Positions 10,904 to 14,457 are shown, counted from the first letter of the stretch. The stretch is DNA of 64,000 nucleotides from Polyangiales bacterium (GCA_041389885.1 JAWKRB010000006.1:3101-67100); one strand, 5' to 3'. A program made the numbers and translations. Notes: generated from the letters alone by a model not told the origin.

Positions 10904-12034
10904 ATGGACGCGCTCGGCCGCTTTCGCGGCGCGATCCTGGGGCTCGCGGTCGGCGACGCGCTGGGACACCCGACAGAATTCATCTCAAACCTCGGGTCGA
11001 TCCGCGCCCGCTGGCCGCCGTACGGGGTCACGGGCTTCGAGGCGGCGGGACGTCATGCTCCGGGTACGTTCACCGACGACACACAGATGGCGATCGCGGT
11101 GGCGCGGGCCCTGTGCCGCGTGGGGCAGCGCGACCTCGACACCCTGATGCGGGTGATGGGCGCCGAGTTCGTCGCCTGGGCGAGCTCGCCCGAGAACAAC
11201 CGCGCGCCCGGCGGCACCTGCCTCGCGGGCTGCCGAAACCTCGCCCGCGGCGCTCCCTGGCGCGAGGCTGGGGTGCGGGGATCGAAGGGCTCGGGGGCGG
11301 CGATGCGGGCGGCGCCGGTCGGGCTCTACCACGCGGGCGACCTCGACGCGCTGGTGCGGGTGAGCGCGGCGCAGAGCGCGCTGACGCACGCCCACCCGAC
11401 GGGGGTCGCGAGCGGCGTCGCGGCGGCGGCGGCCATCGCGCACGCGCTCCGCGACGGGGCGGTGGTCGGGGTGTTCGAGTTCACCCGCGCCTGCCTCGCG
11501 CGGCTGACGCCCGCGATGCTCCTCGACGTCGGCTGCGACGAGGGCATGGTGAGCGCCCTCGGGGTGCGGGAGATGTCCGAGGCCCTCGACCGCGCCGAGG
11601 CCGCGCAGGAGCAAGACGCCGACGACGTCTGCGCGCTCCTCGGCGGCGCCTGGGTCGGCGAGGAGGCGGTCGGCGCCGCGCTCTGGTGCGTGCTGAAGTC
11701 GGGCGGTGACTTCTCGTCGGCGGTGCTCCGCGCGGCGAACAGCTCCGGAGACTCCGACTCCATCGGCTGCATCGCGGGCGCGATCGCGGGCGCGATCGGC
11801 GGCGTCGACGCGATCCCGCCCGTGTGGCGAGGCCAGGTCGAGAAGGCCGCCGCCCTCGACGCGCTGGCGACGGCGCTCTACGAGTCCTCGCGGGACCGGC
11901 GGAGCGTCGTGCTCGCGCCCGAGCTGGACTTCTTCGGCGCGGAGCGCTTCGGCGTACGCCCCGAGGATTTCGCGGAGGGCGAGCCCACCGAGGTGAACTT
12001 CAAGCGGAGCGACCTCCGCGGGCGCCGCGACTGA
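10904..12034 (+). CDS. ADP-ribosylglycohydrolase (ARH/DraG family)
   Basis: MDALGRFRGAILGLAVGDALGHPTEF..., FTDDTQM, and C-terminal NSSGDSDSIGCIAGAIAGA metal-site motifs typical of ARH enzymes; internal ATG of ORF 10544..12034. Confidence 0.85.
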   Translation: MDALGRFRGAILGLAVGDALGHPTEFISNLGSIRARWPPYGVTGFEAAGRHAPGTFTDDTQMAIAVARALCRVGQRDLDTLMRVMGAEFVAWASSPENNRAPGGTCLAGCRNLARGAPWREAGVRGSKGSGAAMRAAPVGLYHAGDLDALVRVSAAQSALTHAHPTGVASGVAAAAAIAHALRDGAVVGVFEFTRACLARLTPAMLLDVGCDEGMVSALGVREMSEALDRAEAAQEQDADDVCALLGGAWVGEEAVGAALWCVLKSGGDFSSAVLRAANSSGDSDSIGCIAGAIAGAIGGVDAIPPVWRGQVEKAAALDALATALYESSRDRRSVVLAPELDFFGAERFGVRPEDFAEGEPTEVNFKRSDLRGRRD

Positions 12035-12051
12035 CGCGGGAGAGGTGAACG

Positions 12052-14457
12052 ATGCAATCGCTGCCAGACCTTGATTCCCTGAGCGTCGCCGAGCTCGCGA
12101 AGCTCGTCGCCTACCACAACCACCGCTACTGGGACCTCAACGACCCCGAGATCTCCGACTACGACTTCGACGTGCTGGTGAACCGCCTGCGCGCCGACGA
12201 GCCGAGCCACCCCGTGCTCCTCTCGATGGGCGCGAAGACCTCGGGGGAGGTGAAGCACAAGGCCGCGATGCTCTCGCTGGACAAGTGCTACTCCGACGAG
12301 GACCTTGAGAAGTGGGCGGCCAGCTTCGTCGGCGACGCGGTGATGATGCCGAAGTACGACGGCATCGCCTGCTCGCTGCACTACGACGCGCAGGGGTACC
12401 TGAGCCTCGCCGCGACCCGCGGCGACGGGGTCACCGGCGACGACATCACCGTGAACGTGCGGGAGATCAAGGACGTCCCCCTGCAGATCAAGACCGATCA
12501 CCCGGTCGAGGTGCGCGGCGAGATCTTCATGCGGCTCTCGGTGTTCCAGAAGTACAAGGCCGAGGGGATGGCCAACCCGCGCAACGCCGCCGCGGGCGCG
12601 ATCAAGCAGAAGGACCCGCGCAAGAGCGCCGCGTACACCCTCTCCTTCGCGGCCTACGACCTGCTGGGCGCGGGGGTCGCGTCGCAGCAGGAGAAGCTGC
12701 GCTGGCTGGTCGCGTCGGGCTTCGACCCCATCGACCACGAGGTGCTCCCGAAGGCGCAGTTCGCCGCGGGGTATCAGCGCATGGCGCAGCTGCGGCCCAG
12801 GCTCGACTACGAGATCGACGGCGTGGTCTTCAAGGCCGACCTGGTCTCGGAGCAGGAGCGCCTCGGCGAGACCGCGCACCACCCCCGCTTCGCCCTCGCG
12901 TACAAGTTTCAGGGCGACAGCGGGAACAGCGTGCTCCGCGCGGTCGAGTGGTCGGTCGCGCGCACCGGCGCGATCACCCCGGTGGCGGTGGTCGACCCGG
13001 TGGCCCTCTCGGGCGTGACCGTGACCCGCGCGTCGCTGCACCACCCGGGCTTCATCACGAAGCTGGGGCTGAGCCTGGGCGCCGAGGTGGTGATGATGCG
13101 CCGCGGGGGGGTGATCCCCAACGTGGAGTTCGTCTCGAAGCCGGGGCACACGCCCGTGCCGATGCCCGCGGAGTGCCCCTCCTGCGGCGGCGCGGTGCGG
13201 TGGGACGGGGACTTCTTGTACTGCGCCGCCCCGCGCGCCTGCCGCTCGGTGGTGGTGGGGCTGCTCTCGCACTTCGCGAGCGCGGTCGACATGCTGGGCT
13301 TCGGCGACGTCATCTTAGAGGGGGCCTACGACCGCGGGCTGCTCAAGACCCCGGCGGATTTCTACCGGCTCACGGCGGCCTCGCTGGCCACCCTCGACCG
13401 CCTCGGCGACAAGACCGCGAAGAAGCTCGTCGCCGAGGTCGACAAGCGCCGCACCCTCGACCTCCCGACCTTCCTCCGCGCGCTCGGGATCCCCGACCTG
13501 GGCAAGAGCGTCTCCAAGGTGCTCGCGGAGAAGTATGGCAGCCTCGAGGCGATCCTCGCCGTCACCGAGGCGGAGCTCGCGCAGCACCACGGCATCGGCG
13601 AGGCCATCGCGCGCTCGGTGGTGACGGGCCTGCGCGACGAGCGCCCGCTCATCGACGACCTGCTCCAGCAGGTGAGCCTCGCCGCGCCCGCGCCGAAGGC
13701 CGCCTCGGCGGGCGCCTCCGCGGGCGGCGGCCCCTTCGCGGGGATGACCTTCGTGTTCACCGGCAAGATGGCCACCCTCGAGCGCAAGCCCGCCGAAGAC
13801 CTGGTCGCGAAGCTCGGGGGGAGCTCCCTCGACGCGGTGAGCAAGGCGCTCTCCTACCTCGTCGTGGGCGACCTCAAGAAGCCCGGCGAGAAGTCGTCCA
13901 AGGAGAAGGCCGCCGACAAGCACATCGCCGCCGGCGCCGCGCTCAAGGTGATCTCCGAGACCGACTTCCTCGCGATGGTCGAGGCCGCGAAGCGCGCGCC
14001 CACGCCCGTCCCAGACGCCGCGTCCGCGCCCGAACCCGCGCCCGAACCCGCGCCCGAACCCGCGCCCGAACCCGAGCCCGAGCCCGAGCCCGAGCCCGTC
14101 GCGCCTGCGCCGGCCCCTGCGGCGGTGCTGGGGCCCGTCGTTCCCCCGGTCGGGCCGGCGGTGTCCTCGCCTGAGGTCACGCCGATGCGCCTGCAGGGCA
14201 AGCGCTTCGTGTTCACCGGGCTGCTCTCGACGCTCACCCTCGCGGAGGCGACCCGGAGGATCGCCGCCCTCGGGGGCGTCGTCTCGGAGTCGCTCGACGA
14301 CGCGACGACACACCTGGTGGTCGGTGACAAGGGGCGGGCGGGTGAGAAGCTCACCGAGGCCAGACGCAGGGTCGGGGCGGGGAGCGCCCTGGAGATCCTC
14401 GACGAGCGCTCCCTCTCGGCCCTCCTCGGGGTCGGTCAGATGTCGTTGTTCTCCTGA
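12052..14457 (+). CDS. ligA: NAD+-dependent DNA ligase (LigA) with two C-terminal BRCT domains joined by a PEPA/EP repeat linker
   Basis: Ia domain ([20 protein letters not shown]), adenylation motif KYDG ([12 protein letters not shown]), OB fold, Zn finger (CPSCGG...C..C), HhH ([10 protein letters not shown]), then two BRCT-like modules (MTFVFTGKM...; KRFVFTGLL...). SD gggagagg lies 6 nt upstream; 801 aa. Confidence 0.93.
14028..14098. repeat. Tandem repeat (cccgaacccgcg)x3 followed by (cccgag)x4 encoding [23 protein letters not shown] linker within ligA
   Basis: Direct reading of DNA and translation. Confidence 0.85.

Follow-up and report, generated by a model that had tools for sequence, protein, structure and literature searches.

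We have found a gene for an ADP-ribosylglycohydrolase (ARH) directly before ligA, the gene of the NAD+-dependent DNA ligase, in a stretch of 64,000 nucleotides from a Polyangiales bacterium (the window). The same pairing recurs in many soil bacteria and suggests that bacteria may control the sealing of DNA breaks through ADP-ribose. We consider it probable that the window holds a co-transcribed module, derived from a larger operon, in which an intact ARH-family hydrolase works with the NAD+-dependent DNA ligase of the cell. Both genes are intact and, as originally predicted, lie where they were placed and have the same orientation:

10904-12034, + strand: ARH gene, ADP-ribosylglycohydrolase of 376 aa, intact (PF03747 match, AF2 fold, homologues aligning from the ATG at 10904)
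10952-11083, + strand: N-terminal metal-site motifs of the ARH, GDALG (aa 17-21), E25 and TDDT (aa 57-60), from alignments
11747-11761, + strand: C-terminal metal-site motif of the ARH, GDSDS (aa 282-286), from the clade alignment
11924-11944, + strand: clade-specific C-terminal motif of the ARH, LDFFGAE (aa 341-347), with L341, D342 and F344 nearly invariant
12035-12051, + strand: ARH-ligA spacer, 17 nt, read from the sequence
12052-14457, + strand: ligA, NAD+-dependent DNA ligase of 801 aa, intact (TIGR00575, NF005932, catalytic motifs)
13693-13986, + strand: BRCT1, the canonical LigA BRCT, aa ~548-645 (Pfam BRCT, TIGR00575)
13987-14187, + strand: low-complexity Pro/Glu/Ala (PEPA) linker of LigA (translation, TRF)
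14188-14454, + strand: BRCT2, an extra BRCT, aa ~713-801 (best Pfam BRCT stretch aa 714-769)
14479-14501, + strand: weak terminator-like hairpin and T-run after ligA (1 found against 0.8 expected by chance)

The ARH belongs to the Pfam PF03747 superfamily by its HMM score (E=1.9e-74 over residues 9-306, 251.4 bits against a gathering score of 26.2, profile positions 1-286 of 287 covered), its all-alpha ARH fold and its metal-site residues. The AF2 model (pLDDT 92.4, pTM 0.91) has the ARH fold, and the top 50 matches listed by Foldseek against the PDB were all ARH-family structures with a probability of 1.00. The residues of the binuclear metal site are all present (E25, T57-D58-D59-T60 and D283-S284-D285-S286). 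When 30 clade members were aligned, GDALG, E25 and TDDT were invariant or nearly so, and they line up with their equivalents in DraG, Tri1 and ARH1. The GDSDS motif lines up with GDADT of DraG and GDSDS of ARH1, D285 being invariant within the clade and D283 and S286 nearly invariant. The enzyme is probably catalytically intact and would act as a hydrolase. The LDFFGAE motif is followed by a disordered acidic tail (residues 358-376, pLDDT <50).

An identity with DraG, which together with DraT reactivates Arg-ADP-ribosylated nitrogenase reductase, was rejected on the curated cut-off of TIGR02662 (106.8 bits, the cut-off being 337.05), and no nif or draT genes were found among the eight neighbouring ORFs scanned, so that the ARH is not DraG, the nitrogenase-type enzyme that would have spoken against the original prediction. 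Tri1 was rejected in the same way (NF041672, 92.8 bits, cut-off 490). DraG is the best sequence match both in the PDB (E=2e-24) and in NCBIfam, and ARH3 (E=6e-17, 22-25% identity) is no nearer than ARH1 or DraG. Foldseek placed the model at equal distances from ARH1, ARH3, DraG, Tri1 and MJ1187, and the sequence behaves likewise for ARH1, ARH3 and DraG; therefore neither structure nor sequence calls a substrate. Three stretches (RAPGG, GxGAAMRA and HPTG) resemble ARH1, which is Arg-specific. Candidate substrates are DNA ends bearing ADP-ribose, the ligase itself and other proteins bound at breaks. The defence models of PADLOC-DB 2.0 gave no match to the ARH and, for LigA, a weak match of the BRCT region to PDC-S48 alone, and we rejected a defence-system assignment for either gene.

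The ligase is a complete LigA, with the Ia, NTase (KxDG), OB, Cys4 Zn, HhH and BRCT domains. It scored 522.5 bits with TIGR00575 (cut-off 444.45), which covers residues up to 621, and 513.7 with NF005932 (cut-off 369), and LigB was ruled out by the cut-off of NF005987 (145.3 bits, below 498). The catalytic motifs are present (YH and SDxxYD of Ia, K101 in KYDG, EVRGE, DGVVFK and LAYKF), as are the four cysteines at aa 375-397 (C375/C378/C391/C397), for which the Pfam Zn-finger model itself gave no score. The two BRCT domains and the repeat-encoded PEPA linker of the original prediction were confirmed: Pfam BRCT matched two stretches, and the linker core is a tandem DNA repeat at 14024-14098 (period 12, 6.2 copies, 96% matches by TRF). 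BRCT2 is 35% identical to BRCT1 (pairwise E=2e-14), indicating that it arose by internal duplication, and is kept in ~35 LigA clusters of 770-820 aa. The original prediction had called the ligase atypical for its double BRCT, but a tie of this trait to the ARH was not supported. In one relative (L166) a LigA 72% identical to that of the window has the double BRCT and the same downstream genes without an ARH, and the retron-linked LigAs described below have a single BRCT. The second BRCT, clade-wide and present without ARH, is therefore not part of the ARH coupling, and we reject it as an adaptation to the ARH. ARH is also missing next to LigA in two other relatives (L167 and L168) and is therefore dispensable for LigA. 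A dedicated paralogue clade of ARH-linked LigAs was unsupported, since LigAs with and without a linked ARH are intermixed when ranked by identity. This suggests, indirectly, that the LigA of the window is the usual housekeeping orthologue of the chromosome, and no second ligase was found in the 64 kb.

The tight linkage of the two genes was confirmed, with a spacer of 17 nt instead of the 18 bp first given. It contains a Shine-Dalgarno-like GGGAGAGG at 12038-12045, and the terminator scan found no terminator-like sites between ARH and ligA. The hit after ligA (14479-14491 in the scan) is about what chance would give and not significant alone, and a scan for sigma-70-like promoters, uninformative at 74% GC, found none. 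In three relatives (L160, L163 and L169) the start and stop codons of ARH and ligA overlap by 4-8 nt. Taken as a two-gene module, ARH and ligA would be co-transcribed. The neighbours of the ARH in the window are an upstream FG-GAP gene, LigA, and Ser/Thr kinase and SNF2 genes. Pfam detected no ART or transferase domains among the eight neighbouring ORFs, seven of which had domain matches.

The synteny is kept far outside this strain. The window ARH falls in a distinct clade, monophyletic in a neighbour-joining tree, whose members are at least 53% identical to it, and ARH is followed directly by LigA in 21 other loci of this clade (L001, L002, L005, L006, L008, L081, L083, L084, L090, L091, L093, L099, L103, L104, L120, L134, L160, L161/162, L163, L169 and L170). 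LigA was near none of the ARH genes in 102 loci where the ARH is <47% identical to that of the window. The adjacency is thus clade-specific (rough Fisher p ~3e-15, the counts being approximate) and is more than chance. The pair persists while the flanking genes vary: the upstream FG-GAP gene of the window is common to only L001, L002, L099 and L170, and these four loci hold only ARH-LigA, like the window, with ARHs 53-66% identical to that of the window and all catalytic residues kept. One subclade of this ARH clade is solitary, with ligase and retron absent nearby (L007, L095, L097, L100, L101/102, L164 and L171).

The two genes are also found as one. In-frame ARH-LigA fusions make up at least six protein clusters, two of them full-length (P0161, 1064 aa, and P0190, 1060 aa, the latter in two samples) and four partial (P0066, P0084, P0098 and P0115). 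Their linkers differ, the closest relative is unfused for 4/6, and the LDFFGAE region stands before the linker to LigA. Besides, in L089 and L087 an ATP-dependent ligase-WGR protein, unrelated to LigA, takes the LigA slot directly after ARH. The coupling of the ARH is therefore to ligation and not to NAD+ chemistry. These data give good support to a functional coupling between ARH and DNA ligation. The functional module of the original prediction withstands the refutation set for it, and synteny, fusions and ligase replacement now sustain the partnership much better than before, whereas the DNA-end substrate is one that we infer.

The substrate is where the main competing reading comes in. The ARH could undo an ADP-ribosylation that inhibits the ligase protein and that a PARP, a toxin or a phage transferase has added, and thus be a reactivator of the enzyme and not a cleaner of DNA ends. 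The top sequence matches, DraG and ARH1, are arginine-specific protein hydrolases, and the ARH1-like stretches weigh in the same direction and against a DNA-end substrate, as ARH1 does not act on DNA. A fusion to LigA would hold the eraser beside its target, and the BRCT domains could serve as modification or docking sites. However, the same ARH is paired with a non-homologous ATP-dependent ligase, for which a shared DNA substrate is likelier than a shared modification site, and the scores of the ARH are far under the DraG and Tri1 cut-offs. In our judgement, enzyme-substrate fusions are also less usual than fusions of consecutive steps. We regard such a switch as unlikely, although it is the strongest of the alternatives.

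The original prediction, made from the window, could not see the wider setting of the ARH-ligase module. In most relatives the pair lies at the end of a longer operon, in which PARP, Macro and a retron of type XIII (Mx162 class) come before ARH and the ligase, and NrtR after them. The PARP, of WGR-PARP_reg-PARP architecture, was present in 5/5 relatives with enough upstream sequence, and the Macro protein is a weak match to the DarG model (E=1.8e-6). The ligase thus has ADP-ribose-themed genes on either side, with PARP and Macro before it and NrtR, an ADP-ribose-responsive regulator of NAD metabolism, after it. The retron, of the Mx162 class to which the first retrons ever found belong, consists of HEAT/ARM, SWIM, msr/msd and RT. 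The genes found directly 5' of ARH were RT_XIII, SWIM_XIII and HEAT-ARM/WGR_XIII. In the msr/msd of the relatives 49/72 predicted pairs showed compensatory changes (alignment and covariation), and an Rfam scan of the retron loci gave no family at its gathering score. In L165 the operon's PARP is itself a fusion with the ATP-dependent ligase module seen in L089 and L087. The literature that we searched, including the retron classification papers, describes no ARH-ligase or PARP-retron association.

The window has no type XIII retron. Within its 64 kb tblastn gave no match to RT, SWIM, HEAT, PARP, Macro, NrtR or ATP-dependent ligase. With the retron parts absent here and present in relatives, the window is a retron-less derivative, and the pathway, lacking PARP, Macro, NrtR and RT, is incomplete as seen there. 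We propose that the ARH-ligase pair descends from the PARP-Macro-retron-ARH-ligase-NrtR operon, which it still ends in most relatives, and that the lineage of the window would have kept only ARH-LigA and gained the second BRCT in the ligase. A PARP-type writer, absent from the window, would mark DNA nicks or breaks with ADP-ribose, which may be attached to the 5'-phosphate, to the writer itself or to proteins bound at the break, the ligase among them. The ARH would then remove the mark and the ligase would seal the nick.

A wider and considerably more tentative proposal is that the ARH and ligase are the output arm of an undescribed system in which WGR-PARP, Macro, ARH, ligase, NrtR and the type XIII retron act as a unit. 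It may be a PARP-dependent sealing of nicks and breaks, analogous to the eukaryotic PARP-XRCC1-LIG3, or the msDNA of the retron may be written on, erased or ligated via ADP-ribose chemistry. The lineage of the window would be its stripped-down form, the eraser-ligase core being all that was worth keeping.

The same operon can be read with no coupling at all, ARH and ligA being adjacent only because of an ancestral gene order in Polyangia-type Myxococcota. Type XIII retrons have been reported as vertically inherited, tracking host phylogeny (PMC7736814), so part of the conservation could be due to descent and not to selection. Solitary ARHs occur, and L166 has lost the ARH while LigA and the downstream genes stay. 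This explanation is already weakened because in-frame fusions exist, and they do so on several branches. Against it are also the overlapping start and stop codons of the relatives, the persistence of the pair though both flanks change, the displacement of LigA in place by an ATP-dependent ligase, and NrtR downstream of the ligase within the same gene string. We consider it improbable.

About as improbable is that the ARH is an accessory of the retron, acting on msDNA, its 2'-5' branch or the retron effector, with the ligase incidental and the window copy a decaying remnant. The type XIII RT is directly upstream of ARH in ~24 distinct loci, RT-ARH is kept without LigA in L004, L096 and L165, and the compensatory changes indicate that the msr/msd is real. 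However, the retron-less pair is intact over the deep divergence of the four FG-GAP loci, the fusions join ARH to ligase and not to RT, and another ligase replaces the missing LigA in two loci. Finally, a role of the ARH in clearing free derivatives of ADP-ribose (such as O-acetyl-ADP-ribose, which ARH3 hydrolyses (PMC8053099), or ADP-ribose-1''-phosphate) linked to NAD+ turnover by the ligase is very improbable: LigA does consume NAD+ and NrtR is in the operon of relatives, but by established enzymology the products of LigA are NMN and AMP and not ADP-ribose, ARH is also found paired with an ATP-dependent ligase, and a scavenger of small molecules would hardly be expected in fusion with a DNA-bound enzyme.

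The preferred reading, an ARH working with the ligase at DNA breaks, matters because a conserved gene string joins here a PARP and two erasers of ADP-ribose to a retron, a DNA ligase and a regulator that senses ADP-ribose. We know of no function for bacterial PARPs or for myxobacterial type XIII retrons. The conserved gene string, together with the repeated ARH-ligase fusion, leads to the testable hypothesis that ADP-ribosylation gates nick sealing in bacteria, and the natural single-chain ARH-LigA enzymes are available for biochemistry. The retention of the eraser-ligase core without the rest of the operon argues that both enzymes act on a common substrate. If this is ADP-ribosylated DNA ends, the pathway would be, to our knowledge, the first dedicated bacterial one repairing such ends.

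Among known systems, ARH3 (ADPRS), the eukaryotic hydrolase of Ser-ADPr, PAR and phosphate-linked ADPr on DNA ends, has the same fold and di-metal motifs (E, TDDT, DxD[ST]) as the window ARH and aligned with it over the full length (residues 2-326). At the low identity given above it is not an orthologue, and the hydrolase of the window is instead beside (or, in relatives, fused to) a ligase. At DNA breaks the WGR-type PARP2 and PARP3 attach ADP-ribose to 5'-phosphates, these marks are removed by ARH3 and not by ARH1, and the PARP3 mark at a nick affects ligation (PMC8053099). DraG is a precedent for an ARH switching one partner enzyme back on, although its partner is nitrogenase reductase, whereas the window ARH adjoins a DNA ligase. 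In Tri1-Tre1 and other ART-ARH toxin-immunity pairs the ARH is likewise encoded beside its working partner, and the window ARH has a partial NCBIfam match to the Tri1 type and structural matches to 6dre and 8za7, but the neighbour of Tri1 is an ART toxin and that of the window ARH a ligase. DarT-DarG carries out reversible ADP-ribosylation of thymidine in ssDNA and shows that bacteria can ADP-ribosylate DNA and have an eraser devoted to it. However, the eraser DarG is a macrodomain and not an ARH, the two are a toxin-antitoxin pair and not ligase partners, and we saw no DarT-like gene.

LigD and the LigC-PrimPolC operons also encode or fuse a ligase with a substrate-preparing enzyme, but the partners are polymerases, phosphoesterases and nucleases on ATP-dependent ligases (PMC7470946). 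The same review lists neither an ARH partner nor a fusion to LigA, and notes ligase-WGR proteins in delta-proteobacteria without context. The type XIII retrons (Mx162, Mx65, Sa163, Ne144 class), whose genes sit upstream of ARH in the relatives, have been described with RT, ncRNA, SWIM and HEAT/ARM as their parts, ligase and ADP-ribose going unmentioned (Mestre et al., 2020, PMC7736814). A parallel to the whole string is eukaryotic single-strand break repair (PARP1/2/3, PARG/ARH3, XRCC1, LIG3), in which XRCC1 and LIG3 have BRCT domains. It differs in that the bacterial ligase is an NAD+-dependent LigA or a minimal ATP-dependent ligase-WGR, XRCC1 is absent, a retron is embedded in the operon, and the bacterial version is a predicted one. 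One operon of the relatives gathers the same cast: the writer is a WGR-PARP, Macro and ARH are the erasers, and the ligase bears a BRCT. The window has just the eraser and the ligase.

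The ADP-ribosylglycohydrolase (ARH) and NAD+-dependent DNA ligase (LigA) genes of the window lie tightly packed in the same orientation. Open reading frames and profile matches bear out the positions originally given, and both genes are intact.

Features of the window around the ARH-LigA pair
10904-12034, forward strand: ARH gene, 376 aa, intact, matching Pfam PF03747 (ADP_ribosyl_GH) with E=1.9e-74 over nearly the whole profile
11924-11944, forward strand: clade-specific C-terminal LDxFGAE motif (ARH residues 341-347), then an acidic disordered tail
12052-14457, forward strand: ligA, 801 aa, intact, co-oriented with the ARH gene
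14532-17174, after ligA: Ser/Thr kinase gene with an FG-GAP propeller
17225-21145, after ligA: SNF2 helicase gene with a SWIM finger
21587-24043, after ligA: TonB-like gene

The tight spacing predicted was found, but the spacer measures 17 nt and not 18 bp, with GGGAGAGG located six bases 5' of the ligA ATG. The window has a G+C content of 74%. A terminator scan detected no terminator-like structure between ARH and ligA, and the single weak terminator-like site 3' of ligA was no better than chance expectation.

The metal-site residues of the ARH are present (E25, T57-D58-D59-T60 and D283-x-D285-S286), are invariant or nearly so in 30 relatives and align with their equivalents in DraG, Tri1 and ARH1. 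In the AlphaFold2 model (pLDDT 92.4, pTM 0.91) disorder is confined to the last 19 residues. The protein belongs to the ARH superfamily and yet to none of its characterised families. By sequence and fold it is about equidistant (22–27% identity) from MJ1187, ARH1, ARH3, Tri1 and DraG, and it is therefore a separate subfamily, probably active, with a substrate that is not readable from sequence. Identity as DraG (107 bits against a cut-off of 337) or as Tri1 (93 bits against 490) was ruled out. In a neighbour-joining tree the ARHs at least 53% identical to that of the window group as a single clade. The LDxFGAE motif looks like a putative short linear docking motif; it is kept even in the solitary ARHs of the clade, and its sequence has some resemblance to beta-clamp-binding peptides.

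Species-representative genomes and metagenomes supplied 159 ARH loci, exact-protein look-up added twelve contexts, and we counted arrangements among the clade loci with enough downstream sequence.

Gene arrangement at ARH loci of the clade
LigA as next gene on the same strand: the window and 21 other distinct loci
ATP-dependent ligase as next gene: L089 and L087
LigA as divergent neighbour: L141
Ligase not seen: about 14 loci, most of them from a single solitary subclade

The synteny is thus conserved beyond the strain of the window, and this while the flanks change: the divergent FG-GAP gene of the window is common only to four relatives (L001, L002, L099 and L170), and the downstream genes of L170 differ from those of the window. 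LigA was found in the flanks of none of the 102 loci with more distant ARHs (<47% identity). The 120 best LigA relatives and the 120 best ARH relatives were also compared by the length of their longest contig, an indirect check in which at least 13 of the LigA relatives matched an ARH relative. Elsewhere in the window (5585-6337), a small gene of the PD-(D/E)XK nuclease superfamily (PF04411, E=4e-11) adjoins an acyltransferase gene, a pair also present in L002.

The pair stands last but for NrtR in a longer run of co-directional genes, whose stop and start codons often overlap, in Pendulispora rubella (CP089983.1), in one MAG each of Labilithrix and Thermoanaerobaculia, and in several metagenome contigs.

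Gene order of the operon in relatives (L160:1-11020, L163:1908-13725, L161:1-11940, L165:482-11113 and L169:1857-13100)
1: PARP (WGR-PARP_reg-PARP)
2: Macro
3: HEAT/ARM protein of ~840 aa
4: SWIM protein of ~570 aa
5: gap of ~280 nt
6: reverse transcriptase (RT)
7: ARH
8: LigA
9: NrtR (Nudix plus winged helix)

The three proteins in the middle matched the PADLOC models WGR/HEAT-ARM_XIII (368 bits), SWIM_XIII (612 bits) and RT_XIII (544 bits), so their genes are a type XIII retron, to which class Mx162, Mx65, Sa163 and Ne144 belong (PMC7736814). The interval from the SWIM to the RT gene (L160:6296-6584 and its counterparts, alignment A2) contains a conserved RNA of ~230 nt with the terminal inverted repeats GATGGAGGATGGGG ... 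CCCCATCCTCGATC and compensatory changes in 49 of its 72 predicted pairs. This RNA, on which Rfam placed no family at gathering score, is very probably the msr/msd of the type XIII retron. In about 24 distinct loci the gene immediately upstream of the ARH is that of the RT, and the PARP was found in all five loci with enough upstream sequence. None of the operon genes other than ARH and LigA appears in the 64-kb window, which shares with L001, L002, L099 and L170 a reduced gene order, FG-GAP(-)/ARH/LigA, in which the ligase has two BRCTs.

Some loci depart from this order. In L169:4041-8270 the retron HEAT/ARM and SWIM proteins were called as a single gene of 1409 aa and no Macro was called between PARP and retron, either a variant architecture or an artefact of assembly or gene calling. 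L096:1038-2913 has the order RT-ARH-NrtR with no ligase nearby, and L171:10001-13449 has a solitary ARH with NrtR 1.6 kb downstream. Since NrtR stays near the ARH in both, there is a hint that it controls this ARH or detects its product.

The ligase of the window is a true LigA plus an extra BRCT. It clears both NCBIfam LigA equivalog cut-offs (TIGR00575, 522.5 bits against 444.45; NF005932, 513.7 against 369), and its catalytic elements are complete (the NMN-binding residues of domain Ia, K101 in KYDG, EVRGE, DGVVFK, LAYKF, the four zinc cysteines and the HhH domain). The LigB cut-off was not reached and that identity was rejected. The two BRCTs joined by a repeat-encoded Pro/Glu/Ala linker, as had been described, were recovered: the linker lies 3' of the normal BRCT, at its core a 12-nt unit is repeated in tandem 6.2 times (14024-14098), and the second BRCT is 35% identical to the first. 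Two-BRCT LigAs (~770-820 aa, at least 62% identical to that of the window) make up roughly 35 clusters, and the retron-linked LigAs have 640-680 aa and one BRCT. The unusual build of the ligase, originally remarked on, turned out to be incidental: L166 codes for a double-BRCT LigA, 72% identical to that of the window, with no ARH upstream, so the extra BRCT belongs to the lineage and does not depend on the ARH. Because L166 also has the same downstream genes (Ser/Thr kinase, SNF2 helicase and TonB-like), the order at 14532-24043 is a chromosomal setting of ligA that is stable within this lineage. The ARH is absent at the LigA loci L167 and L168 as well. LigAs with and without a linked ARH interleave, a pattern that agrees better with a single orthologous ligA, presumably the housekeeping one, than with a dedicated paralogue. 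Just upstream of the LigA of L168, which has no ARH, lie genes for an ATP-dependent ligase and a uracil-DNA glycosylase-family (UDG) protein (7950-9672), and a UDG gene is divergently upstream of the PARP in L163:1087-1764; such genes adjoining ligase or PARP may be a further DNA-repair association.

Six protein clusters join an ARH domain, a variable linker and LigA in a single polypeptide. P0161 (1064 aa) and P0190 (1060 aa, from two independent samples) are full-length, with both halves confirmed by Pfam, and P0066, P0084, P0098 and P0115 are truncated where their contigs stop. Their ARH parts are 59–74% identical to one another. P0098 and P0115 are closest or equal-closest to each other (65%), and the nearest relative is clearly unfused for the other four (P0066, P0084, P0161 and P0190), so the fusion is either old or recurrent. 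Moreover, in L089:2210-3520 an ATP-dependent ligase (PF01068 and PF14743) with a WGR domain directly follows the ARH, and L087 contains the start of the same gene. The Thermoanaerobaculia genome L165 has no ligase after its ARH, and the PARP of its operon bears a ligase module of the L089 type as an N-terminal fusion (L165:482-3376). This module is preceded by a SWIM-like CxC...CxH, and the PARP is a full WGR-PARP_reg-PARP with an apparent H-Y-E triad. The ARH clade is therefore specifically ligase-associated and repeatedly fused to the ligase, which can be swapped for one of another family. The strongest argument that the ARH would be coupled to DNA ligation as such, and not to the NAD+ chemistry of LigA, is precisely that a non-homologous ligase takes the same slot.

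In the relatives the ligase has ADP-ribose writers and erasers on its upstream side and, on its downstream side, a regulator that senses ADP-ribose. The 5'-phosphates of DNA breaks are ADP-ribosylated by PARP2 and PARP3, which are of the WGR type; this modification is removed by ARH3, PARG and some macrodomains but not by ARH1, and ligation is influenced when PARP3 has marked a nick (PMC8053099). In our model a PARP-type writer would mark a nick or break, or the proteins bound there, the ARH would erase the ADP-ribose and the ligase would then seal. Clade-wide adjacency, fusions and ligase swap substantially strengthen the functional link originally proposed, and we consider it rather probable that the ARH is an eraser functionally coupled to ligation; the DNA-end substrate is still conjectural, and DNA 5'-phosphate-ADPr specifically is put forward tentatively. 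The main alternative within such a coupling, a DraG-like reactivation of an ADP-ribosylated ligase, we regard as unlikely. Inherited synteny alone is quite improbable, contradicted as it is by the fusions, and there is similarly little to recommend a purely retron-directed role of the ARH, since the pair is conserved also without a retron. Small-molecule scavenging, contradicted by the displacement by an ATP-dependent ligase, is very improbable.

A full-text literature search, the retron surveys and a DNA-ligase review (PMC7470946), whose coverage is not exhaustive, nowhere described ARH and ligase as paired or fused, and the same surveys and review, with the same limit, did not report type XIII retrons accompanied by PARP, Macro, ARH, ligase or NrtR; neither "ligase" nor "ADP-ribos" occurs in the retron classification of 2020 (PMC7736814). 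These are known enzyme families in a conserved coupling for which we found no published description. Although the window has only the reduced two-gene form, it points to a system that is coherent, can be tested and is apparently undescribed, and that is relevant to what bacterial PARPs do and to what Mx162-class retrons do. Its nearest structural analogy is with the bacterial ligases bundled with end-processing enzymes, such as LigD and LigC-PrimPolC (PMC7470946), and its nearest functional analogy is eukaryotic single-strand-break repair, in which PARP is followed by PARG or ARH3 and then by the BRCT-bearing XRCC1-LIG3.
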